Source of the DNA: Candidatus Aenigmatarchaeota archaeon
GTDB taxonomy: Archaea > Aenigmatarchaeota > Aenigmatarchaeia > CG10238-14 > SCSR01
Direction: 5' to 3'
Assembly (NCBI GenBank): GCA_038998335.1
Contig: JAVZHQ010000001.1
Span: 288,001-352,000 of the forward strand
DNA length: 64,000 bases
Shown here: positions 28,753 to 56,581 of the stretch, piece after piece
Position numbering within the stretch: the stretch's first letter is position 1
Layout: every line of letters begins with the position of its first letter
Program-made: the position numbers and the translations under genes
The notes under the pieces: generated by a model
Told to the model about the DNA's origin: nothing
The model's database searches: none
What the model saw: the letters and a program-made list of their open reading frames with translations, nothing else

Positions 28753-28790
28753 AATTTCATATTTTTTTAAATAAATTAAAAAGGATTGGG

Positions 28791-28806
28791 TGTTAGACGT
28801 CTAACA
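28791..28806. repeat. 16-bp palindrome copy 1, TGTTAGACGTCTAACA
   Basis: Perfect palindrome; extends to 28786-28811 with one G/T mismatch. Confidence 0.95.
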
Positions 28807-28817
28807 TCCAAAAATTT

Positions 28818-29750
28818 TTAAAGCTCAACTATAAACATAAGTCTTTCTACAAGTTCTTTATACCTGTTCCTTATTGTAACTTCTGTGCATCTCATTTTCT
28901 CGGCCAAATCTCTTTGAGTTATCCTTTCTCCTGTTAAAACAGAAGCTATATAAGCAGCAGCTGCTGCTAAACCAGTAGGAGCTTTCCCAAGAGTTAGCCT
29001 AGCTTGTTTAGCAGCTAAAAGTATTTTGTAAGCTACGTCTTCCGTTTTACCAGATTTACCAGCTTCATTTAATGGTCTAGAAACATACTCTCCAGGAGAA
29101 GGAGGAGGCAATTTATAGCCCAATTCTTTTACTATAAATCTATAACTTCTTCCTATTTCTGTTTTCCTAAGACCAGAAATTTCAGAAACTTGATCGATCG
29201 ATCTAGGTATTCCTAATTGCCTGCATGATAAATAAACACTAGCAACAGCAAGCCCCTCTAAAGACCTTCCACGTGAAATTCTTTCTTTTAAGGCTTTTCT
29301 AAGAATAAGAGAAGCGTTTTCCATGGCATTTTTTGGTAGTTCCAGTTTGTTACTTATCTTGATGATTTGATCTAAACCCAAAGCCAAGCTTCGTTCGTTA
29401 GCGTCAGAAACTCTCATCCTTGTCTGCCACTTTCTTAAGCGATAAGATGTTTCCTTTTGTTGTGGCTTTAAAGGCTTTCCATACGCATCACGATCGAGAT
29501 TACTGATTGATGTCATTAGACCCATGTCGTGAAGTGTGTAAGTTAAAGGTGCACCACTTCTTGGCCTTTTTTCTCTTTGCTCTTCGTCAAAAGCTCTCCA
29601 CTCCGGACCTTTATCGTAAATCTTTTGTGCTATAACAAGACCACAATTGCTACATACATCTTCTCCTGTGTCGTAATCTTTTATTATGTTCTTGCTACCA
29701 CACTCAGGACATTTTTCAACTCTTGCTCTCAACAAAGGTTTTTCTTCCAT
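28818..29750 (-). CDS. tfb: Transcription initiation factor IIB (TFB)
   Basis: CPECG...VCSNCG Zn ribbon, GPEWRAF B-reader, two cyclin repeats, TEVTIRNRYKEL. Confidence 0.96.
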   Translation of the reverse strand: MEEKPLLRARVEKCPECGSKNIIKDYDTGEDVCSNCGLVIAQKIYDKGPEWRAFDEEQREKRPRSGAPLTYTLHDMGLMTSISNLDRDAYGKPLKPQQKETSYRLRKWQTRMRVSDANERSLALGLDQIIKISNKLELPKNAMENASLILRKALKERISRGRSLEGLAVASVYLSCRQLGIPRSIDQVSEISGLRKTEIGRSYRFIVKELGYKLPPPSPGEYVSRPLNEAGKSGKTEDVAYKILLAAKQARLTLGKAPTGLAAAAAYIASVLTGERITQRDLAEKMRCTEVTIRNRYKELVERLMFIVEL

Positions 29751-29797
29751 GTTGACTTATTCTCTAATAAGTTGTTTAATTTTAAAAGTTTTTTAGG

Positions 29798-29813
29798 TGT
29801 TAGACGTCTAACA
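29798..29813. repeat. 16-bp palindrome copy 2, TGTTAGACGTCTAACA
   Basis: Perfect palindrome; extends to 29789-29822 with two G/T mismatches. Confidence 0.95.
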
Positions 29814-29853
29814 TTTAAAAAATTTATTCTCCATCATAATTTGCCTTTAAAAA

Positions 29854-30063
29854 TTAAACTGAAATTACTTTCTTCTCAAGAAGAATTGCTTCCCCACCTT
29901 GGTTTTTTATTCTTGTTGCTATTAACCTTAAAGTTTTTATGTCATCGCTTTCCCAAACAGAATGCTGAATTTTTTCTGCTCTAATTGCTTTTAAAGCTCT
30001 GTTTACTTGAACTTGCAAGACTTTTTTATCTCTTGGGATGTCGTAAATTATTATGTACTTCAT
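29854..30063 (-). CDS. Stand-alone Cas2/VapD-fold (PaaX central-domain-like) protein, 69 aa
   Basis: MKYIIIYDIP and IQHSVWES match the Cas2-type YDI and QxSV(F/W)E motifs; no other cas gene in the window. Confidence 0.8.
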   Translation of the reverse strand: MKYIIIYDIPRDKKVLQVQVNRALKAIRAEKIQHSVWESDDIKTLRLIATRIKNQGGEAILLEKKVISV

Positions 30064-30067
30064 AAGT

Positions 30068-30083
30068 TGTTATACGTCTAACA
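30068..30083. repeat. Palindrome copy 3 (variant TGTTATACGTCTAACA)
   Basis: One mismatch; 4 bp upstream of the Cas2-like ATG. Confidence 0.9.
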
Positions 30084-30102
30084 AGCTTAAAAATTTTTCT
30101 AG

Positions 30103-30118
30103 TGTTAGACGTCTAACA
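30103..30118. repeat. Palindrome copy 4, TGTTAGACGTCTAACA
   Basis: Perfect; supplies the TAA stop of ORF 30105-30452. Confidence 0.95.
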
Positions 30119-30452
30119 TAAAAAATAAAAAAAGAAGGGAGGTTAAGGAAAGTTTTTGTAAGATTTCAACAATTTTAGCAGGTTCGTGAATGCCTCTGAG
30201 AACTATTTCCTTTTGGTTGATGCTACCACTAGTGTTGAGAGCTTTTTGAAGTTCTTTTAAAGCTCTCTTTCTCCACGCTTCACTTTTTGTTATTTCTCCG
30301 CTGACTATTGTACAACCATTAGATGTTTTTTGAATCTTTACTTCGCATATTTTCTTTTCCTTCTCATCTTTAAGAGGACAAGAGCAATCTTTCTTAAGAT
30401 CTTTTGGCATACCACAAGCTTTACACGCCATTCTCCCATCCTCTCTATTCAA
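30105..30452 (-). CDS. Divergent SUI1/YciH-like paralog
   Basis: CKACGMPKDL..CSC, TIVSG, LQKALNTSGS, IVLRGIH align by eye with the canonical SUI1 at 17379. Confidence 0.7.
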   Translation of the reverse strand: MNREDGRMACKACGMPKDLKKDCSCPLKDEKEKKICEVKIQKTSNGCTIVSGEITKSEAWRKRALKELQKALNTSGSINQKEIVLRGIHEPAKIVEILQKLSLTSLLFLFFMLDV

Positions 30453-31004
30453 TCAGATTTTTCTCATAACTTTTTTTGCAGTTTTTTTACCAGCATAGAA
30501 AAATCCTACTACTACTAATGCTGTTATTATCAGGCCTATTACAAGGAAGATTATTGCCTTAGAGCTATCTTTGCTATCTTCAACACTTTCTATTAATGAT
30601 TCGATTATTCCCATATCTTTGATACTTTCGAACGATCTTAGCCACACATTTATATCCCAAAGAAGAGCTAAGGTATTGTATATCGATACAAGTATACCTC
30701 TTAAAGACCTTGTACGTATTGCCTCTATCCATCCGTTGATAGTTATTACCACGCCAAGTAAAATTATCGGAAGCCCAACTATCACGTTTATAGGTAATAG
30801 GAACTGAGTGCTCAAGATGTTCAAAGCAATGCCCACAAGAATAAAAGTGTAGTAGAAGCCTACAAGCGCCAAAGCAAGGACAACTAAAGCTATTGCTTTT
30901 TCACCTTTCCCTTTTGAAATACCCCAAAGAAGCCCTGAAGCGTATGCATTCCAGCAGGAGACGAAGAAATTCCAAGCTATGATTAGCCACAAGAGCAAAT
31001 CCAT
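30453..31004 (-). CDS. Multi-pass membrane protein (about 183 aa)
   Basis: 5 hydrophobic segments; start moved to ATG 31004 behind a GGAGG SD. Confidence 0.75.
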   Translation of the reverse strand: MDLLLWLIIAWNFFVSCWNAYASGLLWGISKGKGEKAIALVVLALALVGFYYTFILVGIALNILSTQFLLPINVIVGLPIILLGVVITINGWIEAIRTRSLRGILVSIYNTLALLWDINVWLRSFESIKDMGIIESLIESVEDSKDSSKAIIFLVIGLIITALVVVGFFYAGKKTAKKVMRKI

Positions 31005-31121
31005 TTCTCTTTTTCCTCCACTCCTTTTTTCCTTCCCTTTTCTGGAGTTTTGCCGCTCCAGGCCTAGGGAAGAGAGGCCCTCTGGTTTTACCTTCATCGA
31101 CGGAAAAAAAGAAGGGGGGGA
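31005..31121 (-). ncRNA. Putative structured leader RNA with pseudoknot potential
   Basis: After a C7/U-rich tract: hairpins GGCCU/AGGCC and UGGAG/CUCCA; loop CUUCCCU complementary to downstream AGGGAAG; then SD and ATG. Confidence 0.5.
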
Positions 31122-34100
31122 TTAAGCGATATTTATGGCTAGTATTTGCATCGTTAAGTCTGGTAGAAGAGCAGCAACGTATAATGTTTTAGTCGTTTCT
31201 TTTGTTTGGTACCAAAGGTATACTTTATCAATGTTGTTTGGTACACACACCTCTTGGACAAACCTCTGAATTACAGGCTTTACTTCGTCCCATGCTTGTG
31301 TTATCTTGAAGTCTATAGTAGCGAAGTATTCTGCAATCATTGGGTTTACTACACTTGGGGTTTTGATTGTAAGACCAAAGCTAATAAGCTCCTCTTTAAC
31401 TTTTTCTATCCTTTCTTCCTCGCCTTTAAGAAGACCTTTTGTTATGGCAATGTAAGCCTTTGAGGCTGCTGTCAGCACTTCTTCAGAGCTTGGGTTTGGG
31501 CTTAGAAGATAATAGCCAATTTTCCCAGTTGTTCCATCGATTGCTACTACCATAGTAACTTTCATCACTGTCGGAGTTATAGTATAGTAAGGAATAAAGA
31601 ATACCGGCTTCTCGTCGATTAGGTAGAGAATAAGGTTTCCTTCTTCCCATTGTTGCCCTTGTTGTTTTCTTGTTGTTAAAATATATTGAATCTCTGAGTT
31701 TGTGTTTACCGAATCTAGAAGTAATTGAATTGCCAAAGCATTTTTTATTGGCACAAAGAATTTTTCACCATTTCCTAGAAATATGTAAACTCCCGCTACC
31801 TGCCTTGCGCTCCATTGACCTGGCTCTGGTTTTTGTTTATAGAGTTCTACTATTCTTATTCCAGCGTATGTGAGTTTTCCTTGGTAATATATTGGAATGT
31901 ATCTTATGTCGTCGAATTTTATGTTGAAGTAGTTCCAGTTTCTATCAACAGGAAAATCAAACATGTTCAAAGTTTTATACCAGCTGTCCCAATCGTTAGC
32001 ATCTATGTGATAAGTGTTGTACAGGTCGATTAGGTTGTATGCCAAGCTTTTTGGAAATCTTACTTGCTCTTTAAGCCATTGTGGGATTTGTTTATTCCAA
32101 GCAGGATAGAAAGATGCGAAGTACTTTGTTATGTAATTTTCATCCCAATTTCCGTACCTAAATCCTTTTACTGTACCATCATGAGAATTTATTAAGACTA
32201 TAGCAAAAAGTCTTCTGAAATTCCCACTAGTTTTTACCAAGTATCCTGAAGTATCTGTATAGCCGCTATTAATTTTTTTGTTGATGTAGATAGCAAAACA
32301 GTAGTAAATGTTCCCTTCAGGGTCTACCACTAGATAAGGTATGGGCTTTCCGGTAGAAGGTTCTTTTTCTACTTCAAGTCCTTCGATCAGCAATGAATTT
32401 ATTCTTTCTACAACATCTCTTTTGAAAAGTACTGAAATTTCTTTTCCGTATTGTCCTGAAGCGAAGGCAAACTCACCTCTCCAGAAGAAGTACCACCATC
32501 TTTCAGTAGCGCCCCATACCACTGTATCTTTATCGCTCAATATATAGTCAGGAACTCCATCGTATGAAGCTGGCCCTTTATAGCTTGGAAGACTTGCCTC
32601 CTTCCACTTGCCTATGTTTAGATAAACTTCGTTTTGTTCTCTGAATAGACCACCAATTCCGTAGTACATAGAAAGAGTCGACATGTTAACTTGTGGAAAA
32701 ATTTTATCAAAGTCTACTATTTCTCCACTTGCTGCATCTACAGCAATTATCGATTGCGATCGAACGTAAATGTATCTTTTGCCTTCTACAACATCTGAAG
32801 CTTCTGGTAGTACTGGCGACGTTGGGCAAACCCAATACTCATGATTGTTTGCCCAAACAATCATAGGGCCATAGTAATACTTGTCTCCTTCTTGTTCTAC
32901 TGCCAGTTTCATCCAAGGCTGGCCAACTTTTATACCATAGGCATAAATCATTTGTTTGAGAGCAGCTGTATAGCTTATTATTCTTACATCTTTGAGTATG
33001 CTTTCCTCGAACTCTGGTGAAGTTTTTATAGCTTCAGATGATAAAGTTTGAATGTTTGACAAATCGTTAGTCCATTTAATATAGGCTATATGGGGTTGAA
33101 TTCTGTAAGGAAATTCAAAGATATTTTTAGAAGCGCTGTAATTTTGCTGAACATGATAGTTCCACCATGCTATTAATGTAGGAGCCCATAAAATTATAAT
33201 GATAAGGACTAAAGTAATAAGTACTGTACCAAGTGCGTGCTCTTCAAAGAATTTTGCTATGTAGGCTTCTGAATAGTGTAACGCTATTCCTAAAAATGCT
33301 AAAACAATAACTAACACTAGCCTCCATTGAACGTATATGGGAACTGTTATGTCACCGACAGTTGAAGGTACCATTAGAATACAGAAGTAGAAACTCCACG
33401 CAAAGCCTGAAATTAGGATATACTTAAACACTCTGATCATTTTTCTTTCTAATTCACCTTCTTCCCAACCCCATCTTCCTTTGTGCTCTGTTAAGGTCAC
33501 GTAAGAAGTTATTGGAACTTTGATGGTATAGTAGATAAGCAAAGGTAAAAGAATTAGGCTTAATAACTCTAGAAAGTCAAAGACTATTGTGTTTTCTAGT
33601 AGATAATTTGCTGTTGGTAGGCCTCCGAAGATATAGTAGTTTATCGATGGTAAGTAAACTCTTTGAATAAAATCTATCCAGTTCATTCCGTTCATTTGTA
33701 GGTATGAGTCAACAAGAAGCCATTGTCTAGCGATAGCATGACCTATGAATAATGCAACTATGAATCCTAAGAAAGCTCTTAGCAAAGCTAGGATTAAGCC
33801 TACTAAAGCTCTTTTAGCAAGGCTAGTCTCGTTAATATCTACGTCGAATAATCTAAACACAAGCTTCATAGTTGCTCTTTTTCTCCAGAAGAAAGGATTG
33901 CTTAAGAACCAGATCAAAGGTATTACCCAAAGAACTTGCCAGTAGTAGCCTTTTTCAAAGGTTATGTCCCAGATGTTTACTCCTGCTTTGTGAAGCATCC
34001 ACCATCCGTTAAACTTCATTTGGAATAGCCAGTTTGCATAGGATAGTTGCGAAATTATGAAGATTATTATTGCTAAGAACATTATTGTTATTGTTAGTCG

Positions 34101-34160
34101 TTTATGCTCTTTGAAGAACTCTTTTATTTGCTTTCCGTAGCCAATTCTTTCTTCTTCCAT
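31122..34160 (-). CDS. UPF0182 family membrane protein
   Basis: N-terminal multi-TM region then large soluble domain with PYLVVD, INSHDGTV, VRFPKSL...NTYH, FFIPYY motifs. Confidence 0.75.
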   Translation of the reverse strand: MEEERIGYGKQIKEFFKEHKRLTITIMFLAIIIFIISQLSYANWLFQMKFNGWWMLHKAGVNIWDITFEKGYYWQVLWVIPLIWFLSNPFFWRKRATMKLVFRLFDVDINETSLAKRALVGLILALLRAFLGFIVALFIGHAIARQWLLVDSYLQMNGMNWIDFIQRVYLPSINYYIFGGLPTANYLLENTIVFDFLELLSLILLPLLIYYTIKVPITSYVTLTEHKGRWGWEEGELERKMIRVFKYILISGFAWSFYFCILMVPSTVGDITVPIYVQWRLVLVIVLAFLGIALHYSEAYIAKFFEEHALGTVLITLVLIIIILWAPTLIAWWNYHVQQNYSASKNIFEFPYRIQPHIAYIKWTNDLSNIQTLSSEAIKTSPEFEESILKDVRIISYTAALKQMIYAYGIKVGQPWMKLAVEQEGDKYYYGPMIVWANNHEYWVCPTSPVLPEASDVVEGKRYIYVRSQSIIAVDAASGEIVDFDKIFPQVNMSTLSMYYGIGGLFREQNEVYLNIGKWKEASLPSYKGPASYDGVPDYILSDKDTVVWGATERWWYFFWRGEFAFASGQYGKEISVLFKRDVVERINSLLIEGLEVEKEPSTGKPIPYLVVDPEGNIYYCFAIYINKKINSGYTDTSGYLVKTSGNFRRLFAIVLINSHDGTVKGFRYGNWDENYITKYFASFYPAWNKQIPQWLKEQVRFPKSLAYNLIDLYNTYHIDANDWDSWYKTLNMFDFPVDRNWNYFNIKFDDIRYIPIYYQGKLTYAGIRIVELYKQKPEPGQWSARQVAGVYIFLGNGEKFFVPIKNALAIQLLLDSVNTNSEIQYILTTRKQQGQQWEEGNLILYLIDEKPVFFIPYYTITPTVMKVTMVVAIDGTTGKIGYYLLSPNPSSEEVLTAASKAYIAITKGLLKGEEERIEKVKEELISFGLTIKTPSVVNPMIAEYFATIDFKITQAWDEVKPVIQRFVQEVCVPNNIDKVYLWYQTKETTKTLYVAALLPDLTMQILAINIA

Positions 34161-34258
34161 TTTTCTTTCCTCCTTTTTCTTGCCCCACCCACGGCTGGAT
34201 TTTGGGGTACGTGGGGCTTGGCCCCAGGCTTAAAAGCCCTCCAGCCCACAGAAAAAAA
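34160..34258 (-). repeat. 99-bp GC-rich direct repeat copy A (structured leader plus SD)
   Basis: Identical to 39195-39293. Confidence 0.95.
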
Positions 34259-34265
34259 GGGAATT

Positions 34266-34538
34266 TTAAAGAGAGAAAGCCCAAAAAAAGGCTATAGTCC
34301 ATGCTATTATCACTGCTATGAAAGGAACCCTCTTGTCTTTGTAAACCATTGAATATGAGTAAATTCCTAAGGCTGCAAAGAAGCCAAAGAGTAGAAGTAT
34401 GTAATAGCTGAATACTACAGGAAACGTTTGTTGAAATTCTTGGATTCTTAGGTTAAGTCCGATTATTAGCAAGAAAGCGCACCATCCTGCCAAAAACAAA
34501 GCTGCAAAGCAAAGACTTACTATTTTACTCTTTTCCAT
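34266..34538 (-). CDS. Small 3-TM membrane protein
   Basis: Hydrophobic 90 aa; GGAGGTGA SD upstream. Confidence 0.75.
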   Translation of the reverse strand: MEKSKIVSLCFAALFLAGWCAFLLIIGLNLRIQEFQQTFPVVFSYYILLLFGFFAALGIYSYSMVYKDKRVPFIAVIIAWTIAFFWAFSL

Positions 34539-34559
34539 TTAGCTTCTCACCTCCTTTTT

Positions 34560-34706
34560 AATTTGATAACCTTGAAGAAAAACAAGAAAAGACATTCAAT
34601 TCTTAACAAAAGACAACTCAAGAAAAAAATTTTCTTTTTGATTAGAAAAAACTCTACCAAAATTTTTCTTCAATTTTTGCTTTTTTCCTTCAAGTTTTAT
34701 CAAGTT
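34560..34706. repeat. Imperfect inverted repeat of about 30 bp in an intergenic leader
   Basis: AATTTGATAACCTTGAAGAAAAACAAG (34560-) versus reverse complement of 34674-34706 AACTTGATAAAACTTGAAGGAAAAAAGC. Confidence 0.6.
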
Positions 34707-34808
34707 AGTTGCTCTAAAGGTAAACCAAGTTTTTTCGTTTAATAAATCTTATAATTATAAACTTCGAAAGCCTTATAAGTTTTTTTCTCAAAAAATGAAA
34801 CACTTGTT

Positions 34809-36878
34809 TCACCTTTCTGGAATAAACTCAATTTTTTTCCAAGTTTCGCCTTTTTTAAAATCTTCTATGCTTGCAACGTAAAGGATTAAACCTATTCCTT
34901 TATGCTCAAAGCTATACTTTGCAGCTTGCTGTATTACACAAACTTTTATTTTTTCCGAAGAGCAAACAAAATAAATTTCTTTTCTGGAATTCTTTATTTT
35001 TTCATAAATCTTAGCCGGAACAGCTTCAGCTATCAAGCTAACTTCAAAGTTAAACTCATTTTTTTCTATTTCAATTTTTTCTTGAGTCCTTGAAACTATT
35101 CTATAGCCATTCAAAGTGAAAACGTTTTCCAAAAACTTTATTTCCTCTTCGCTAAACTCCTTTCTCTCATGCTTTGGCAAGGTATTGTTTCTTAAGATAA
35201 GAGCAAGCTCACCCTCATGTGTTAAGAAGTAGAATATGGCAGTTTGCTTGTAAACCTTTGCTTTTCTTGAACCGATAAAACCTATTTGGCTAAGCTTTTC
35301 TACAATTTCGTTAAAAACTCTGCAAGACATTTTTAACTTTTTATAAAGCTCAGAAGTGTAAGAACCTTCAAAACTAGCTAAAGCTTCTAAAACTTTCCAC
35401 TCGTTATAAGTAACTCTTAAAATCTTTTTCTCGATATCTTCTTTCTCAAGCTTAAGCGCAACCTCAAAATCCTTTCTTTCTCTTTCTTTAAATTTCAAAA
35501 TCCTTTCTTCCATTTCCTTTCTTAAAATTTCATCGCTTATAATTCCCCTTTCAACCAAAACTAAAGGAAACTTTATCAGGAAAGGATTTGGAAAATCAGA
35601 CTTTCTTATCAAAATAAAAGCATGTCCTACAGGAAGCCTTCTCAAGTAATCTATATCTTTTTCTTCTCTTAATCCTAACATATTAGCTGCATCTTGTACG
35701 TCTGAAGAATACTTTGTATCTAAGCCCAAATTCATGTAAATATGCGTAGAAGTGTTTCCCAAGGCAGGATAGCTCACTAAAGAAGGGTGCTGATCAACAT
35801 AAATCATTCCTATTCCTAACTCTCTAATTTCTCTGAATATCAAATCAGTTACAGCTTCTACCCCAAACTTCTTAGTTTTTTCTCTGTTCAAAACATGATG
35901 AGCTTCTTCAAGGATTATTACTCCCAAAAGCTTTTCTCTTTTGTTTGAAACAATAAGCCAATCTCTTATCCATTGCAAGATTATTTCTATGAAAAAAGTT
36001 TTGTCATCATTGCTTAAAGAATCGAGCTCAAGTATTGTTATTTTGCCTTTTTCAAAAAAGCTCGAAGGTAAAATTCCTTTTTCACAATCAAAGATTTCTC
36101 CTGTTTCTCTCAAGCATAAAGATTCTAAAGGCCTTTTTGCAGTTGCTATCCAGTTTTTCTCTCTTGGTGAAAGCTCAAAGCAAGAATATTTCTCAAGCCA
36201 ATCTTTTATATCTTTTATTCTTGGAGTTTCTGGCTCAAGCTTTTTGTAGAGCTCGTCCAAAGCTTTTAAGATTATGTGCCTTCCTCCTCCCAAAAGCCAG
36301 TAAGCATGGTCAAAAACTTCGGCAAACTCTTTTATCCACTGAGAAACCTGAACTCCTTGAGGAGGAACCAAAGGATTAAACCTGAAAGGAGCAATATCTC
36401 TTCCAACAGTATAAACTGTTATCCTTTCTTTAAGCTCAGTAGCAAGCAAATCTCTGTAGTTTCTTTTTGAAAAGTCAAAAATTAAAATTGGAATTTCCCT
36501 TTTTGCTAAGGATTTTACAAGAAAATGAACAATATTAGTTTTTCCTGAGCCTGAAGAACCAAAGATTCCTACATGCGTTAGCAAATCTTTCTCGTTTAAA
36601 AACAAAGGGTAAAGCTCTTTCTTTCCGTATAAAATGGTTCCGAGCTCAAAATCTCCTTTTGAAGCAATTTCTTTTGGAGGAGGCTCTAGCAAAGCTGAAC
36701 TTTTTAATTCATCATCAGAAAAAATGCTTGCTTTTATTCCGTCTATTATTTCAACTATTTTCTTTCTATATTCTTCATCTCCTAGAAAATAAGCTGCCTC
36801 GAGCCTTGCTGCTTTTTCTTTCCCCAAAAAAGGAATAAGCCTTTGAATCTCTTTTGTTATTTCTTCCATTTTATCCAC
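34809..36878 (-). CDS. HerA/VirB4-like (DUF87) ATPase with C-terminal winged helix
   Basis: Walker A GSSGSGKT, Walker B IILEEAHH, REIRELGIGMIYVDQHPS; FYFLTHEGE wHTH wing. Confidence 0.88.
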   Translation of the reverse strand: MDKMEEITKEIQRLIPFLGKEKAARLEAAYFLGDEEYRKKIVEIIDGIKASIFSDDELKSSALLEPPPKEIASKGDFELGTILYGKKELYPLFLNEKDLLTHVGIFGSSGSGKTNIVHFLVKSLAKREIPILIFDFSKRNYRDLLATELKERITVYTVGRDIAPFRFNPLVPPQGVQVSQWIKEFAEVFDHAYWLLGGGRHIILKALDELYKKLEPETPRIKDIKDWLEKYSCFELSPREKNWIATAKRPLESLCLRETGEIFDCEKGILPSSFFEKGKITILELDSLSNDDKTFFIEIILQWIRDWLIVSNKREKLLGVIILEEAHHVLNREKTKKFGVEAVTDLIFREIRELGIGMIYVDQHPSLVSYPALGNTSTHIYMNLGLDTKYSSDVQDAANMLGLREEKDIDYLRRLPVGHAFILIRKSDFPNPFLIKFPLVLVERGIISDEILRKEMEERILKFKERERKDFEVALKLEKEDIEKKILRVTYNEWKVLEALASFEGSYTSELYKKLKMSCRVFNEIVEKLSQIGFIGSRKAKVYKQTAIFYFLTHEGELALILRNNTLPKHERKEFSEEEIKFLENVFTLNGYRIVSRTQEKIEIEKNEFNFEVSLIAEAVPAKIYEKIKNSRKEIYFVCSSEKIKVCVIQQAAKYSFEHKGIGLILYVASIEDFKKGETWKKIEFIPER

Positions 36879-37467
36879 CTAAGTTTAAGTCTGAAAATAA
36901 GCTTGCTATCTTTGATTCTTCTTCGTATTGCTCTTCAAGCTCTTTTAGCTGCTTTCTTAAGGCTACTATGTCACGCCAGAAAAGAGTATTTTCCTTTCTC
37001 TTTTCCATTCTTAACAAAGTAACGTTAAGCTTAAACTCCCTTAGCTCTTCCCTGTTTGAAATTGTTGAAATTATTCTTTCCATTTCTGCTATGTCTGAAT
37101 CTATTTCTTTGTTAAACTTTACGTTCATCTCTTCTCTTTCTTTAATAATCTGCTTGATTTCTTCTATTCTTTCCTTCAAGAACCTCACTCTATCGAACAA
37201 ATTTCCAACAACTTTTGAACCAAAGAGCTCTAAAGGTTCAATTTCGGTTGATTGCATATCCTTAGCAAGCTTTTGAAGAATTGGCACGCTTATTTTCTGA
37301 ATTTTTGGCTTGATTACTTTAACTTCTTCTTGTTTGTACTTTGGAATTTTTGGCAAAGCTTGAGAAGAGCTATCTTCTTTTTTCTCCACATAATCTTCGC
37401 TGTCCTTGCTCTTGTAGCTTTTTATAACTCTTTTTATTTCTTTGTCATCCAATTCATAGTATTCCAT
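36871..37467 (-). CDS. Coiled-coil protein coupled to the HerA-like ATPase
   Basis: E/K/R-rich heptads; overlaps the ATPase start. Confidence 0.75.
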   Translation of the reverse strand: MEYYELDDKEIKRVIKSYKSKDSEDYVEKKEDSSSQALPKIPKYKQEEVKVIKPKIQKISVPILQKLAKDMQSTEIEPLELFGSKVVGNLFDRVRFLKERIEEIKQIIKEREEMNVKFNKEIDSDIAEMERIISTISNREELREFKLNVTLLRMEKRKENTLFWRDIVALRKQLKELEEQYEEESKIASLFSDLNLGG

Positions 37468-37643
37468 ATAATCACTTATTGGTAGTTAATGAAAATTAAA
37501 TTATTTAAATCTTTCGATGTTAAGACAACTAAAGACATTTTTCTCCACTTTTCAAAATTTTTCTCAATTCTTTAAGAAATTTGTCCAAAAAAATTGGTAC
37601 AAATGCGTCAAATTTAAAAACTTTTTTGTCATTATATTTTCAT

Positions 37644-38081
37644 ATGATAGACGAAAGAGATTTGTTTATATTAAATGAATTGAGAAAAAACGCAAGGCTT
37701 AGCTCTCGTGCCCTAGCAAAAAAAGTTGGCTTACCAATTTCTACCGTGCATAGAAGAATAAAAAGGATGGAAAAGGAAGGAATAATCAAAGGGTATTATG
37801 CAGCCATAGACTTTGAAAAGATAGGAAAACCTATAGAAGCATTAATATTGATAAACCTTGCAGAAGGAAGAGAATATATCCCTTTAGAACAAATAAAAAA
37901 AGAGCTTAAAGGAATAGGAGAAATAATGGAAATTCTTGTTCTTCAAGGGGGAAACATCGATCTAATAACAAAAGTGAGGCTTCCTAACCTTAAAAACCTT
38001 TCATCATTTTTGGAAAACATAAGAAAGCTTGAAGGAATAGAGGAAGTTTCTTGCTCCATAGTTGCTGAGGAATTGAGTTAA
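37644..38081 (+). CDS. Lrp/AsnC family transcriptional regulator
   Basis: IDERDLFILNELRKNAR...STVHRRIKRMEKEGIIKGY; start moved to ATG 37644. Confidence 0.93.
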   Translation: MIDERDLFILNELRKNARLSSRALAKKVGLPISTVHRRIKRMEKEGIIKGYYAAIDFEKIGKPIEALILINLAEGREYIPLEQIKKELKGIGEIMEILVLQGGNIDLITKVRLPNLKNLSSFLENIRKLEGIEEVSCSIVAEELS

Positions 38082-38090
38082 TTTTTTAGA

Positions 38091-38106
38091 TGTTAGACGT
38101 CTAACA
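38091..38106. repeat. Palindrome copy 5, (A)TGTTAGACGTCTAACA(T)
   Basis: Perfect 18-bp palindrome 38090-38107 between convergent genes. Confidence 0.95.
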
Positions 38107-38148
38107 TAAAACAAAAAAATGGGGAAGTGGAAAGGAAGTCAAAGAAAC

Positions 38149-38325
38149 TCATTGCCTTCTAAGCTTTGGTATAGCAAAAGCTAAGATTAGCCCTAGAAAG
38201 AAAATCAGCACAACGAAGATTGCTGTGCCAAGAATAGGACCTGCCATCAGAGCAAGGAAAACCGTCACTATTAAGTAAAGCACTGATAGCAAAGCCATTG
38301 TCACAATTTTTTCTTCCTTTGGCAT
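38149..38325 (-). CDS. Small 2-TM protein (58 aa), candidate immunity protein
   Basis: Start MPKEEK at 38325 behind a GGAGGAG SD overlapping the upstream stop. Confidence 0.65.
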   Translation of the reverse strand: MPKEEKIVTMALLSVLYLIVTVFLALMAGPILGTAIFVVLIFFLGLILAFAIPKLRRQ

Positions 38326-38336
38326 GTTAGCTCCTC

Positions 38337-39194
38337 CTAGATTATGATGAAAAAGCCCCAGTCCTTCCATGCACCGAAGCTCATCCACCACCAAGCTGCT
38401 ATCACCCAGCCAAAGAATGTTAGTTTGCCATAGCCCCATGTGTATATCCAACCGTCTCCAAGCTCTGTCTGTATTATATTTTCGATGAACCATCTTATTA
38501 AGTATCCTACTAACGCTAATATTGCTCCGACCAAAGCTATTATTCCTGCCACAAACTTGCTAACAAGCTCTGGAACTGCTAGCAAGCCCGCGATTATCGG
38601 TCCTAAAAGCCCTGCTATGGAAGCAAAGGTTGACTTATACTTTGCATCCTCTAAAGTGTATTGAGGAATGTGATGATGATGCTTTGAAGCTCCGTTTAAA
38701 GTATAGGCTTTGTTCTTAGCTAGTGGATAGTAGGTTTCTATGTTGTCAGGATGGTCGTACTTAACCCAGAAATAATCGCTTCCAGGAGCTCTAACAAAAA
38801 GTATACCATCCCAATAGTATTTTGGTAAACTTAAACTAGAAGTTGTTGCCATAACTCTATAGCCTGGCTCTATGAAAAGCCAAGAAGGCATAGGCACTCT
38901 AGGAGGTTTTGGCTGAGGATATATTTTTGCTATTGGATAAGGATCAGACTTTATTGTTATTACCCTTCCTTCAACAGTAGTTTTTACTTCAATCTGAACG
39001 TAGTGTTGACCTGCTTTTATTATGTCAAACCTTTTGGCATAGACTTTGAAACCATTTATTTCAAACGTTTTTGAAGTTTCTATGGTTAAATTTGTGTTTA
39101 ATAGCGAGACACTTGCATAAGTTGGCAGAGCTACACTTGAACTTAGCACTAGGAAGAGAAGCAGCGCTACTATTGCTACTTTGTACTTTCGCAT
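38337..39194 (-). CDS. Secreted protein with C-terminal hydrophobic helical hairpin (285 aa)
   Basis: Signal peptide MRKYKVAIVALLLFLVLSSSVA; Gly/Ala-rich hydrophobic C-terminal region; start moved to 39194. Confidence 0.75.
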   Translation of the reverse strand: MRKYKVAIVALLLFLVLSSSVALPTYASVSLLNTNLTIETSKTFEINGFKVYAKRFDIIKAGQHYVQIEVKTTVEGRVITIKSDPYPIAKIYPQPKPPRVPMPSWLFIEPGYRVMATTSSLSLPKYYWDGILFVRAPGSDYFWVKYDHPDNIETYYPLAKNKAYTLNGASKHHHHIPQYTLEDAKYKSTFASIAGLLGPIIAGLLAVPELVSKFVAGIIALVGAILALVGYLIRWFIENIIQTELGDGWIYTWGYGKLTFFGWVIAAWWWMSFGAWKDWGFFIII

Positions 39195-39293
39195 TTTTTC
39201 TTTCCTCCTTTTTCTTGCCCCACCCACGGCTGGATTTTGGGGTACGTGGGGCTTGGCCCCAGGCTTAAAAGCCCTCCAGCCCACAGAAAAAAA
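39195..39293 (-). repeat. 99-bp GC-rich direct repeat copy B
   Basis: Identical to 34160-34258. Confidence 0.95.
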
Positions 39294-39309: not shown

Positions 39310-41448
39310 CTATTCCTTTTCTTCTTCCTCTTTGTCTCTCTTTTCTAGAAATTCTGTCAACTGCTTTGCTATGAGTTTTGCTGGAAGTGTTTGAGACACT
39401 GGCTTAACTATAGCCTTTATCAAAGAACCTATGCCAATTAGCACAAAGATTATTCCAACTATGCAGCAAATGTAACCTATTGCCATATCCAAGGCTGGAA
39501 CCGAGAGTAATGTCCATGAACCTATTTTCCAGTCTATTATGCCTATGGAAAGTTTTGCAAATATCAGATACTTTAGAAAGAATAAACCTAGAAAGAACGC
39601 AACGATACCGCAAAGGATTATCGAGATAGGAAACTTGAACCTTTGCCATACTGGTATGGTTACCTCTTTTACTATCTTTTTGCCTTCTTTTGCTGCAGTT
39701 TTTGCTAACTCTTTTGCCTTCTTTCTTTTGTACTCGTCTCTTGCTATTGCTCCTACTGTTACAATCATTGAAGTAATGCATACCGTTGCAAGAACCCAAA
39801 CCCAAGGACTAATTCCATGTTCACTTATTGGCTTGTCAGGATCAGAGTCTGGGTCTGGATCAGGTTTTGGATTTGGCGGAGTTCTGTCAACTATTTCTGT
39901 GTTGTTATCTGGCAGGACTGGTGGCAAAAGTTTGAAGCTTAAGTAAGCGTTGCTTGTCACTAGCCCATCCCAAGACCTTTTCACGTAGAAAAATACCTTT
40001 CCTTCTGTTTCGCTTGCTACGCCCAGGTTTTCCACCTCAAAACTAAGCTTTTCTGTTTCATTTGGCTTTAAAGTTATAGTAACGCTAGTAGGTTTAATAG
40101 AAGCTCTTGAAGTGCTTGTGTCAGCAATAACAATTGCAGAACTTGCTGTTTTTGCGTACTGCTTCAACACTACTTCACACTTTCTTTTCCCTGCTGCTTC
40201 TATCTCTGAACTTCCAACCCACTTCACGCTTTCTATTCTTATGTCAGCAATCGGTGGCCTATAAACCCAAGTTTCAGCAAGCTCAGTAGGAACAAAGAAA
40301 GTAACTATCGGAGCTCCGCTATAAGCTCCCCATGGAATTTCCACTATTACAGCATGAGGTTCGCCGTCTTTCATTTCTATCTGCCATTTATAACCTCTTA
40401 GCCATGTTTTGGCAATGTTTCCTTGACTTGTCATTTTATTTAGGTACCACATCAAGCTGTAGTCGCCTTCGCTTGGGTAGATGGGTGGAGCTATAGGATC
40501 TCTTATGAAGTTAATGTCCCAAAATCCATCTCGTGCAACCCAACCTTTTTCTGAATCGATTATCGGATAAGCTAAATCTGGCTGCTTGAAAGGTGCTGGA
40601 CTACCTGCAACATCCTTATCGCTTACTGCACAAGGATTCCATCTTACTACGCCGAACCAGAAGGTAGAGTAAGCTTTGCTGTCCTTTATATAGCAAAGTA
40701 CGCAACTTTTTGAAGGATAGTATACTGTGGTAGCACCATGATCATATCTTATATATTGGAGTGCTTCGCTTGTAAAAATGTAGTTCTCGTTGAAAAGGAC
40801 TATTTCAGGAACATGTGGCTCTGAGAAATCACCCTCTAGTCTACCTAAGTTTTTGATTAGTACAGGACCTTTTGGTGTGTTAACCACGAATTCCTTTTCT
40901 CCTGCCTCTGTGTTTAGCGAAGCTTTGCCCATTAGAGTACCTTCTAGATAAACAGAAACTTCGAAGATTGTGTATTTTTCCCAACTAGGCTCTCCCCATT
41001 GGTAATATTTAACTACTGTTGCTGGTATAGAAACATCTTTTTCGTACCAAACGTTACCGATAAGTTTGCTCGCGCATCCTCGATAAACTTTTGGTGCAAC
41101 TATTCTGTCTTCTATGGGAGCAAGCTTAAGTAATCTTTTGAAATAGGACTTTACTGGTTTTATTACTATTTCCACCGTTTTCTTCGTTTTTATCTTAGCT
41201 CCTTCTTCATCTTTCAAAGGCTGCGTTGTGTTTGCAGGAAGTTTTATTCTTCCCTCAAAGTTGTCCATCTGGTCTACTGCTGCAGTAAAAACCCAGTAGC
41301 CCCCTCGCCAATTCCCTGAGCTATCCTCGTCACCACCTTGCAACTGAACGTTTTGCGGTGGGGTTAAAAGTGTTGCTTCGCAGCTTACTGTTAAGCTAAG
41401 CACTAGGAAGAGAAGCAGCGCTACTATTGCTACTTTGTACTTTCGCAT
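39310..41448 (-). CDS. Large surface protein: signal peptide, beta-rich ectodomain, Pro/Asp linker, C-terminal TM helices
   Basis: Same N-terminus as the 285-aa ORF; PPNPKPDPDPDSDPDKP linker; three C-terminal hydrophobic segments. Confidence 0.8.
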   Translation of the reverse strand: MRKYKVAIVALLLFLVLSLTVSCEATLLTPPQNVQLQGGDEDSSGNWRGGYWVFTAAVDQMDNFEGRIKLPANTTQPLKDEEGAKIKTKKTVEIVIKPVKSYFKRLLKLAPIEDRIVAPKVYRGCASKLIGNVWYEKDVSIPATVVKYYQWGEPSWEKYTIFEVSVYLEGTLMGKASLNTEAGEKEFVVNTPKGPVLIKNLGRLEGDFSEPHVPEIVLFNENYIFTSEALQYIRYDHGATTVYYPSKSCVLCYIKDSKAYSTFWFGVVRWNPCAVSDKDVAGSPAPFKQPDLAYPIIDSEKGWVARDGFWDINFIRDPIAPPIYPSEGDYSLMWYLNKMTSQGNIAKTWLRGYKWQIEMKDGEPHAVIVEIPWGAYSGAPIVTFFVPTELAETWVYRPPIADIRIESVKWVGSSEIEAAGKRKCEVVLKQYAKTASSAIVIADTSTSRASIKPTSVTITLKPNETEKLSFEVENLGVASETEGKVFFYVKRSWDGLVTSNAYLSFKLLPPVLPDNNTEIVDRTPPNPKPDPDPDSDPDKPISEHGISPWVWVLATVCITSMIVTVGAIARDEYKRKKAKELAKTAAKEGKKIVKEVTIPVWQRFKFPISIILCGIVAFFLGLFFLKYLIFAKLSIGIIDWKIGSWTLLSVPALDMAIGYICCIVGIIFVLIGIGSLIKAIVKPVSQTLPAKLIAKQLTEFLEKRDKEEEEKE

Positions 41449-56350: not shown

Positions 56351-56545
56351 TTAGAAAATGAATTTTTCTTCTAATATTTTGCAGAACCACCTTTTTGCTT
56401 TATTAGTTCTTGAAGTTTTTCGCTTTTCCAAACAGAAAACTGAACCATTTCAGCTTTTATTTTCCTAAACTTCTGTTTATTCTCTTTTCTAGCGTTGTAT
56501 TCTCTCTTGGGATGTCAAAAGCTAAAATGAAATTCGTTTTTTCAC
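56351..56545 (-). pseudogene. Decayed paralog of the Cas2-like gene
   Basis: Fragments NFILAFDIPRENTTLEKRINRSL / KIKAEMVQFSVWKSEKLQELIKQKGGSAK / ILEEKFIF in different frames align to ORF 29854-30063. Confidence 0.8.
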
Positions 56546-56565: not shown

Positions 56566-56581
56566 TGTCATACGTATGACA
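56566..56581. repeat. 16-bp palindrome TGTCATACGTATGACA, covariant relative of TGTTAGACGTCTAACA
   Basis: Perfect palindrome 20 bp upstream of the pseudogene. Confidence 0.9.

Follow-up and report, generated by a model that had tools for sequence, protein, structure and literature searches.

A stand-alone Cas2-fold protein of Aenigmatarchaeota paired with a 16-bp palindrome: a candidate sequence-specific DNA-binding autorepressor

The stretch of 64,000 nucleotides analysed here (hereafter the window) comes from a Candidatus Aenigmatarchaeota archaeon, assembly GCA_038998335.1, contig JAVZHQ010000001.1, and corresponds to C1:288001-352000 of the genome that we call G000 (1.01 Mb in 9 contigs, 33% G+C, 90% complete). 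It holds a stand-alone gene for a 69-residue protein with the fold of Cas2, which lies among perfect and nearly perfect copies of a 16-bp palindrome, TGTTAGACGTCTAACA. We consider it likely that this protein binds the palindrome as duplex DNA and controls its own promoter, since the pairing of gene and palindrome, the symmetry of the site, its operator position and the covariation between residues and bases all point that way. With less assurance, yet on balance, we would describe the protein as a sequence-specific, double-stranded-DNA-binding autorepressor whose dispersed sites act as punctuation or insulation. An earlier note on this DNA, made from its letters alone, had suggested that the protein binds, cleaves or propagates the palindrome. 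The fold, the gene-palindrome pairing, the covariation, the promoter geometry and the distribution of the sites were all computed here, and the first of these three roles appears well supported, the pairing being family-wide and the palindromes differing in step with the protein.

Pairing of the gene with its palindrome and promoter

The gene, presumed to encode the reader of the palindrome, occupies positions 29854 to 30063 on the minus strand (MKYIIIYDIPRD...QHSVWE). Perfect copies of TGTTAGACGTCTAACA stand at 28791-28806, 29798-29813, 30103-30118 and 38091-38106, and TGTTATACGTCTAACA, which departs from it by one mismatch, at 30068-30083; our scan returned the five copies where the earlier note had placed them. 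Five matches at up to two mismatches compare with a mean of 0.01 in 100 dinucleotide shuffles, none of which reached five. Three copies bracket the gene, one lying 40 nt after its stop codon and two at 4 nt and 39 nt before its start. Read on the minus strand, the promoter consists of the perfect palindrome (30103-30118, or -55 to -40 from the ATG, directly upstream of the stretch that resembles a B recognition element, BRE), which we call the distal putative operator, then of a BRE/TATA-like spacer (30084-30102) that reads CTAGAAAAATTTTTAAGCT and centres its T/A box at about -27, then of the one-mismatch palindrome (30068-30083, -20 to -5), the proximal putative operator, which sits between the TATA-like box and the start, and finally of ACTT and the ATG; this assignment as a promoter comes from its geometry. 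The distal copy also supplies the stop codon (30105-30107) of a 115-residue open reading frame (ORF; 30105-30452, minus strand), and the four others are intergenic, both as first described. The copy at 29798-29813 is followed after 47 nt by the start (29750) of the gene for transcription factor B (TFB), that at 28791-28806 stands 11 nt past the TFB stop and 38 nt upstream of the start of a Tyr/Trp-tRNA synthetase gene (28752), and that at 38091-38106 separates convergent genes, 9 nt past the stop of an Lrp/AsnC gene (37581-38081) and 42 nt from the end of the ORF at 38149-38493 (minus strand).

The pairing of gene and palindrome holds well beyond the window. We collected 88 family genes from 34 genomes, 87 of them with enough upstream DNA, and looked for a perfect 16-bp palindrome with at least four G/C within -45 to +8 of the start codon. 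The genomes compared throughout are metagenome-assembled genomes (MAGs) of 70-96% completeness with longest-ORF calls as gene maps, related genomes are non-independent samples, and the comparison regions were selected around palindrome sites. Such a palindrome is found at 57 of the 87 genes, and at 68 when one mismatched pair is allowed, against 3 of 349 ORFs of at least 100 residues in the same loci and 1 of 1045 ORFs in G000. Twenty-six different palindromes occur, which share the frame TGTnnn-centre-nnnACA; positions 1-3 (TGT) and 7 (A) hardly change, the variable parts are positions 4-6 and the centre (ACGT, AGCT, ATAT), the two half-sites always change together and the alternative centres AGCT and ATAT are themselves palindromic. 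Of 19 genes from the remaining families of the order, 11 have a perfect palindrome that is 14 bp or longer and most others show palindromic arms, so that the expectation of the earlier note, namely that homologues stand next to perfect palindromes, is borne out within the GTDB family of the window and outside it. Most paralogues elsewhere have their palindrome upstream only. The class pattern TGTNNNACGTNNNACA gives 323 matches (24 for the reversed control) in the 34 genomes with a family gene and 19 (17 for the control) in 27 genomes without one; two of these 27, G060 and G076, are outliers, 77% and 81% complete, and a profile search returned a weak match in G076. The window itself holds a second, decayed family gene (56371-56531, minus strand, with frameshifts, stops and a shortened second helix), about 35 nt downstream of another palindrome, TGTCATACGTATGACA (56566-56581), which is present as a single copy in the genome. 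The recognition segment of the decayed gene (..NTTLEKRINR..) matches that of intact genes elsewhere which carry TGTCATACGTATGACA (..N-T-x-E-K-[RK]-I-N-R). The TGTCATAC type of this window is a family palindrome that is not cognate to the 69-residue protein.

One may ask whether the palindrome belongs instead to a regulator that has nothing to do with the Cas2-fold protein, for example the Lrp/AsnC protein or, through its winged-helix part, a HerA-like ATPase encoded nearby, the Cas2-fold gene being merely one of the targets of that regulator. The Lrp/AsnC gene does end 9 nt from the copy at 38091. Yet each of some 26 palindrome variants follows the sequence of the Cas2-fold gene next to it, the palindrome class stays at background in the genomes that lack the family, and no neighbour family recurs: out of 156 neighbouring ORFs, the 146 that were scanned fall into 126 Pfam families, mostly housekeeping, with random orientation (39 on the same and 36 on the opposite strand upstream, 32 and 49 downstream). 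Nor is there a recurrent cas family among the 25 most frequent Pfam families near the 88 genes. An unrelated owner of the site, which the earlier note had raised as a way to abandon its own proposal, is hard to reconcile with these data and in our opinion scarcely credible.

The position of the palindrome at the promoter is also a family trait. In 40 of 56 non-identical upstream regions the palindrome is preceded, at a distance of no more than 22 nt, by the end of a BRE/TATA-like word (typically tAGAAAAGTTTATA), compared with 6 and 4 of 56 in control windows farther upstream. The palindrome begins 0-4 nt past the TATA-like box, upstream of the point where transcription is expected to start. 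From its end to the start codon there are 2-10 nt in 27 genes, the leaderless type, and 14-21 nt in another 27, often with GGTGA in between; the distances of the two remaining genes are -6 and 29 nt. The geometry of the proximal putative operator is shared by 56 other family genes. In the geometry of archaeal promoters, a protein bound at -20 to -5 blocks the recruitment of the polymerase, and it is for this reason that autorepression is proposed. At its own leaderless promoter, the protein of the window would have two operators, one placed after the TATA-like box and before the start codon, the other abutting the BRE-like stretch; this placement makes repression of its own transcription the most likely outcome.

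Fold, recognition residues and family of the protein

The Cas2-like fold that the earlier note had attributed to the 69-residue ORF is corroborated by modelling. The AlphaFold model, based on an alignment of 44 members, reaches a pLDDT (predicted local distance difference test) of 96.7 with the topology b1-a1-b2-b3-a2-b4, and its top Foldseek matches in the PDB are nearly all Cas2 proteins (2ivy, E=6.6e-4; 3exc with the best query-normalised TM-score, TMq 0.73), VapD appearing at ranks 38 and 44. By sequence, Pfam Cas2 (PF09827) matches the protein at E=4.9e-4 with 20.7 bits, under the cut-off of 23.8, NCBIfam TIGR01573 with 21.1 bits, under that of 24.5, and PaaX_M at E=0.045. PADLOC yields weak, sub-threshold Cas2 matches only, on which ground membership in a defence system was rejected. 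Across the 44 members, the Cas2 model matches 20 at E<0.01 and the PaaX_M model 11; the family protein is a single domain of 67-76 residues without a fused winged-helix domain. Within the genus the ratio of nonsynonymous to synonymous substitution rates (dN/dS) is 0.09-0.18, which marks the ORF as a gene under purifying selection. The earlier note had seen neither cas1 nor a CRISPR array in the window, and this negative now extends to the whole 90%-complete assembly, where there is no match to cas1 (Pfam PF01867) and where an exact-word repeat scan detects no CRISPR-like array. The sole regular repeats of that scan lie inside a 3511-residue ORF outside the window (C1:123-10658), whose internal tandem repeats measure about 66-140 nt.

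Modelled as a homodimer, the protein scores 0.58 against 0.00 for the best of three controls, with contacts that agree by at least 96% between runs and a partner pLDDT of at least 92; in the calibration of the tool, 20 of 30 proteins with structures solved as pairs attained this mark, as against 1 of 23 solved as single chains, and the pass may only reflect likeness to Cas2 dimers already solved. The predicted interface comprises residues 3-8, 32-36, 42-53 and 58-67, and leaves helix 1 free. When 56 gene-palindrome pairs are compared with shuffles, the centre base of the palindrome varies with profile column 12 (R11; z 19.7) and column 35 (H34; z 13.7), and half-site positions 4-6 vary with columns 15, 16, 18, 19 and 22, that is residues 14, 15, 17, 18 and 21 (z 11-16), which belong to a loop and to the first helix, itself hypervariable. 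Of the 42 genes with an ACGT centre, 41 have an arginine or lysine at residue 11, against none of the 14 with other centres. On a tree built without the recognition columns, which is poorly resolved, the type of centre changes at least eight times. The geometry is coherent as far as the model goes, the residues beside the predicted dimer axis (8, 34-36) pairing with the centre of the palindrome and the free helix with its outer bases. We propose that the Cas2-fold homodimer binds the 16-bp palindrome as double-stranded DNA, R11 and H34 near the dimer axis reading the central ACGT and the loop and first helix (residues 14-21) reading half-site positions 3-6.

The family is narrow. A HMMER search of 1.84 billion representatives gave only 56 clusters at E<=1e-3, nearly all of 61-98 residues; the named database matches are Candidatus Aenigmatarchaeota MAGs, and ESM Atlas contributes only unnamed Aenigmatarchaeota clusters. 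Two long 'homologues', P0059 and P0070, were rejected as low-complexity false matches. The family occurs in 58 of 301 sampled genomes of the phylum, all in the order of the window (families f1-f7) except two in f18, and 34 of the 61 genomes of the window's GTDB family match the 69-residue protein, with 1-16 matches each. Decayed copies and gene fragments are frequent across the sampled genomes. Viral contigs yielded no relative of the protein, and a viral link was rejected: the 16-mer occurs once each in five viral contigs, which we regard as no more than chance. We also observed that G051, assigned to genus g11, has a family protein 99% identical to that of the window together with 10 copies of the same 16-mer; such closeness is unexpected for a different genus and suggests mis-binning or recent transfer.

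The question arises as to whether the protein cuts what it binds. The aspartate D8, the counterpart of the Cas2 aspartate, occurs in the window protein, and at least 90% of the 44 aligned members have it too. Five of 19 genes from the other families of the order (4 of them from f5) have Q or K instead, and four of these five genes keep palindromic arms, TGATAC-N4-GTATCA; L042 and L044 likewise have K at this position. Since palindromic arms persist in genes devoid of D8, the conserved function would not need the Cas2 aspartate, and a catalytic, nuclease role is weakened by this subfamily.

Dispersed sites and the borders of gene segments

The genome-wide count proposed in the earlier note gives 17 perfect and 4 one-mismatch copies of TGTTAGACGTCTAACA in G000, 21 together, with 0 two-mismatch and 4 three-mismatch copies; the reversed control pattern has no match in this genome. 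On a crude longest-ORF map all 21 are intergenic or run into the end of a gene by no more than 6 nt. The genes that they flank are mixed and include those for TFB, Tyr/Trp-tRNA synthetase, Ser-tRNA synthetase, thymidylate kinase, TatD, AcnX, a Yip1-domain protein, DUF488, two AAA_14/DUF4143 ATPases and a transglutaminase-like protein; a tRNA-Glu gene and the 3' side of the 16S rRNA gene also adjoin sites. Scans of the site loci for tRNA genes and Rfam families found only tRNA-Glu, tRNA-Ile and 16S rRNA, and no RNA family on the palindromes themselves. As a side observation, five palindromes at C1:137667-143207, outside the window, separate two paralogous AAA_14/DUF4143 ATPase genes, the Ser-tRNA synthetase gene and a 3'-end remnant of a third ATPase, each ATPase 3' end being followed directly by a palindrome.

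The surroundings of each copy are symmetric, A-rich at -13 to -11 and T-rich at -9 to -4 on both sides. Arms that face a gene start read outward as a AAAAATTTTTAA-like box, and in 9 of these arms 35-49 nt separate the palindrome from the start codon; arms that face a gene end are the complement of a T-run placed 0-15 nt after the stop codon. The module thus resembles a compact terminator/promoter unit that would work both ways, the palindrome being its untranscribed centre. We propose that the other 16 or so copies in G000 are further binding sites, each centred in a symmetric module some 40 bp long (A-run/T-run, palindrome, A-run/T-run) that could end incoming transcripts and carry outgoing promoters, and the dimer bound there may serve as a roadblock, an insulator or a promoter-proximal regulator. 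The same surroundings bear on another explanation, in which the palindrome works as a hairpin in RNA or single strands (terminator, stabiliser or processing site) and the Cas2-fold protein as an RNA-binding protein or RNase. Many copies indeed lie 0-15 nt after stop codons, and some Cas2 and VapD proteins are reported as ribonucleases, as far as the titles of PDB entries 3exc and 6zn8 tell. Against this, a T-run comes before the palindrome on either strand, so that transcripts would be expected to stop short of it; the own-promoter copy lies upstream of the expected transcription start; the variants of the centre are palindromic, which a hairpin loop does not require; and asymmetric hybrid sites in G073 have no orientation bias (4 versus 5, counted by eye in a small sample). 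A role in RNA fits the data poorly, as does an unrelated regulator, and we hold it to be very improbable. The palindrome also recalls the bacterial centromere site parS, likewise a 16-bp palindrome with a CG centre; an origin or centromere was considered and set aside, GC skew being uninformative and a clear Orc1/Cdc6 gene lying on another contig.

Several observations weigh against the autorepressor with dispersed punctuation sites and have to be set beside it. The genes flanked by the sites have no common function, and tandem, divergent and convergent intergenic regions hold sites alike. At least 4 of the 21 copies stand in places where a promoter is not expected, between convergent genes or beside the 3' end of 16S rRNA, and copies are perfect or nearly so, without the intermediate forms of a classical regulon. 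None of the 15 homologues of ORFs flanking sites in G006 adjoins a site in G000, and for G073, which has related palindromes, 1 of 14 flank orthologues (DUF488) does, against a background of 30 in 1047 genes. Given these counts we rejected a conserved regulon, and the term 'regulon' offered by the earlier note can be kept in a loose sense only, the positions of the sites not being conserved. At the 10 sites where both flanks could be aligned between G000 and G001, the palindrome exceeds its surroundings in conservation only modestly (3 differences in 160 positions versus 58 in 1198). Some genomes hold palindromes of the class without a resident cognate gene, such as TGTCACACGTGTGACA in G061. 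As for the covariation, similar proteins may share palindromes through common descent, and only two independent contrasts fall on well-supported branches (seven on all), which leaves the sign test without power.

The perfect-or-absent copies, their non-conserved positions and the borders of cassettes described below keep two other explanations in play. [quoted passage not shown] This would account for a gene flanked by cognate palindromes, for the gap between 17 perfect and 4 one-mismatch copies and zero with two mismatches, and for positions that are unrelated between genera and include all intergenic types. All five genomes that represent the genus contain the same 16-mer, and G006, which belongs to another genus, has 21 copies of it; large expansions have arisen separately in several genera: 20-40 matches in G000, G006, G009, G071 and G073, as opposed to about the number of genes in G010 and G067. 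Different paralogues have different palindromes, gene-less genomes lack the repeats, decayed genes and fragments are common, remnants of gene 3' ends adjoin palindrome copies, and D8 is retained by most members. The protein is nonetheless a 69-residue Cas2 fold rather than an HUH/Y1 transposase, and the genes with Q or K for the aspartate mostly keep their palindromic arms. The fixed operator position of the home copy behind a BRE/TATA-like box in 40 of 56 regions fits regulation over a transposon end; moreover, most paralogues have the upstream palindrome only and copy numbers are in the tens, not hundreds. We regard mobilisation of this kind as unlikely. Three genomes (G009, G061 and G073; loci L108-L116 and L143-L152) pack two to four different palindromes of the class into single intergenic regions, 4-30 nt and often 4-5 nt apart, some of them between convergent genes; some pairings recur, such as TGATACAC-type palindromes beside TGTTATAC-type ones at two loci, and G073 has many hybrid sites made of two different half-sites, as well as palindrome pairs 36-44 nt apart.

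The second explanation takes the palindrome for an att-like site at which single-gene cassettes undergo conservative site-specific recombination, the Cas2-fold dimer marking or bending the site for a separate recombinase. We compared 13 of the 14 site clusters of G000 with its congener G001 (87-98% nucleotide identity). Six of them show an insertion, deletion or replacement of 0.6 kb or more whose start is no farther than 50 nt from a site, and at a seventh junction G001 has an extra site. In four cases, one or more genes between two palindromes in G000 face a single palindrome in a congener. The AcnX cassette (C1:207421/209126) has at its ends 28-bp inverted repeats that consist of the palindrome and 12 further nt; G000 and G004 have the Yip1 cassette (221851/222573), which G001 and G005 lack; a 2-kb segment (796443/798234) is absent from G001; the last one is an ATPase segment (139305/140985). 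G000 encodes four tyrosine recombinases, none beside the sites of the window, and the Xer-like one at C1:795526-796008 was seen about 430 nt from palindrome 796443, at the edge of the segment absent in G001. Five of 15 sites in G006 lie within 180 nt of a contig end. On the other side, the remaining 6 of 13 clusters are colinear; recombination between two paralogous ATPase genes explains the ATPase case equally well; the 'empty' Yip1 site of G001 keeps a decayed second copy 44 nt away and is not a clean single site; and the extra gene of 632 nt that G001 has beside 28806 is flanked by a palindrome on just one side. Most genomes of the family have the palindrome essentially nowhere but at the promoter of the gene itself, deletions can arise between any two identical 16-mers with no enzyme devoted to the task, and 16 bp is short for the core of a tyrosine recombinase site. 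Dedicated recombination at the palindrome seems to us quite improbable, and under the autorepressor reading the cassette-like insertions and deletions would be a by-product of identical repeats recombining. The 'cassette boundary' of the earlier note stands as an observation, six of 13 clusters having such changes beside them, and goes no further than that.

A broader version, which we think conceivable though doubtful, is that a Cas2-derived or Cas2-ancestral module marks, and possibly cuts, its cognate palindrome, the sites becoming the ends at which single-gene cassettes are inserted, excised or exchanged in reduced genomes. Contigs from 14 hot-spring metagenome runs, which are DNA and serve as hints only since they cannot show mechanism, bear on the same borders. 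Contigs of other strains stop at palindromes (record 3 of run X2 at 29813, record 11 of run X3 at 28807), and those of three runs join 29831 to 34742 with six other letters between, other joints having short sides. This joint skips the Cas2-fold gene, an SUI1-like ORF, two membrane-protein ORFs and a 90-residue ORF, and read depth over 31170-34088, a 1012-residue ORF with no Pfam match, is far below that of the flanks in all four runs; the segment 29832-34741 looks like a strain-variable island.

Two further features of the window may be recorded in passing. The HerA/FtsK-like ATPase mentioned above (DUF87, 689 residues, 34809-36878, minus strand) has a C-terminal winged-helix region (F-93 WHD, DUF2250), and the next ORF after it, of 198 residues, looks like a coiled coil and has no family match. 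MRKYKVAIVALLLFLVLS is common to two adjacent ORFs, at the N-terminus of a 712-residue one (39310-41448, minus strand) and from residue 31 of a 315-residue one (38337-39284, minus strand); the true start of the latter may be at MRKYKVAIVALLLFLVLS, and both are likely, by sequence, to be paralogous secreted or surface proteins.

Significance and relation to known systems

If binding is confirmed, the family would provide a new and very small scaffold, of 69 residues, for sequence-specific DNA binding, with the Cas2 fold acting as a reader of DNA, and at least 26 natural specificities on one frame would make the recognition code directly workable. It would also be a first means of approaching the genome punctuation and lineage-specific gene control of uncultured DPANN archaea, and a palindromic-repeat-reading ancestor would offer an alternative to a toxin-derived origin of Cas2. 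The link between the palindrome and the cassette-like gain and loss of genes makes genome flux in these symbionts testable. Should the module that marks cassette ends prove true, it would be a system outside CRISPR in which a Cas2-fold dimer recognises a repeat and new DNA lands between two copies, again with a simple, re-targetable residue-to-base code. The accessible parts of the open-access literature, including a 2025 CRISPR classification (PMC12669027) and a study of Aenigmarchaeota genomics (PMC8407114), hold no description of a sequence-specific Cas2-fold DNA binder or of this family, and lists of solo Cas2 may sit in supplements.

With respect to CRISPR Cas2 (PF09827, TIGR01573; 2ivy/2i8e SSO1404, 3exc SSO8090, 5g4d), the family has in common the b1-a1-b2-b3-a2-b4 ferredoxin-like fold, the small size, the predicted homodimer, the N-terminal strand that in most members ends in Y-D-I with its aspartate and the Q-x-S-V-W/F strand. 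In CRISPR adaptation Cas2 serves Cas1 as a structural partner, and proteins related to Cas2 are known as small nucleases or domains of regulators. In contrast, the family scores under the curated Cas2 cut-offs, is some 20-30 residues shorter than the matched Cas2 chains, occurs in a genome where neither cas1 nor a CRISPR array was found, is found in one Aenigmatarchaeota order plus two genomes of a neighbouring family (in the 301-genome sample), and has a hypervariable first helix that covaries with the palindrome of its own promoter. The VapD toxins and the central domain of PaaX likewise have this fold; they differ in that no antitoxin-like partner gene accompanies the family (126 Pfam families among 146 neighbours, in random orientation), as a VapD toxin would have, and in that the winged-helix domain fused in PaaX is missing.

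The comparison with REP sequences, their inverted doublets (REPINs) and RAYTs is one of architecture. In those systems (PMC3337134, PMC3116915, PMC5581495) the gene is usually single-copy and has its cognate extragenic palindrome on its flanks, further copies lie between genes, variants of the gene go with different palindromes and genomes without the gene lack the repeats, as seen here. Unlike RAYTs, which are tyrosine transposases (HUH/Y1, IS200/IS605-like), the family protein matches no transposase family; its repeats are perfect, loopless 16-bp palindromes, mostly single and present in 1-40 copies, whereas REPINs are inverted doublets that usually number hundreds per genome. In G000 the 21 copies include one pair, 35 nt apart, at the promoter of the gene, and the home copy is operator-like. 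Integrons have been reported in Archaea (10.1101/2022.02.06.479319), and their cassettes resemble the segments described here in being single-gene units bounded by palindromic sites and present or absent between close relatives; they depart from them by an integrase-attI platform beside the array and by long imperfect attC hairpins instead of 16-bp perfect palindromes. The cassettes of G000 moreover lie in either orientation, with promoter-like boxes of their own where those of integrons are promoterless, and are scattered among housekeeping genes.

Small dimeric autorepressors are exemplified by ribbon-helix-helix proteins and by archaeal repressors that bind between the TATA box and the transcription start. 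Like these, the family combines a small protein, predicted to dimerise, with a two-fold symmetric site that overlaps its own core promoter, and its paralogues diversify in specificity. It differs from them by its fold, which is Cas2-like and neither ribbon-helix-helix nor helix-turn-helix, and by its additional sites, which are perfect copies at non-conserved gene boundaries rather than the degenerate sites of a conserved regulon.

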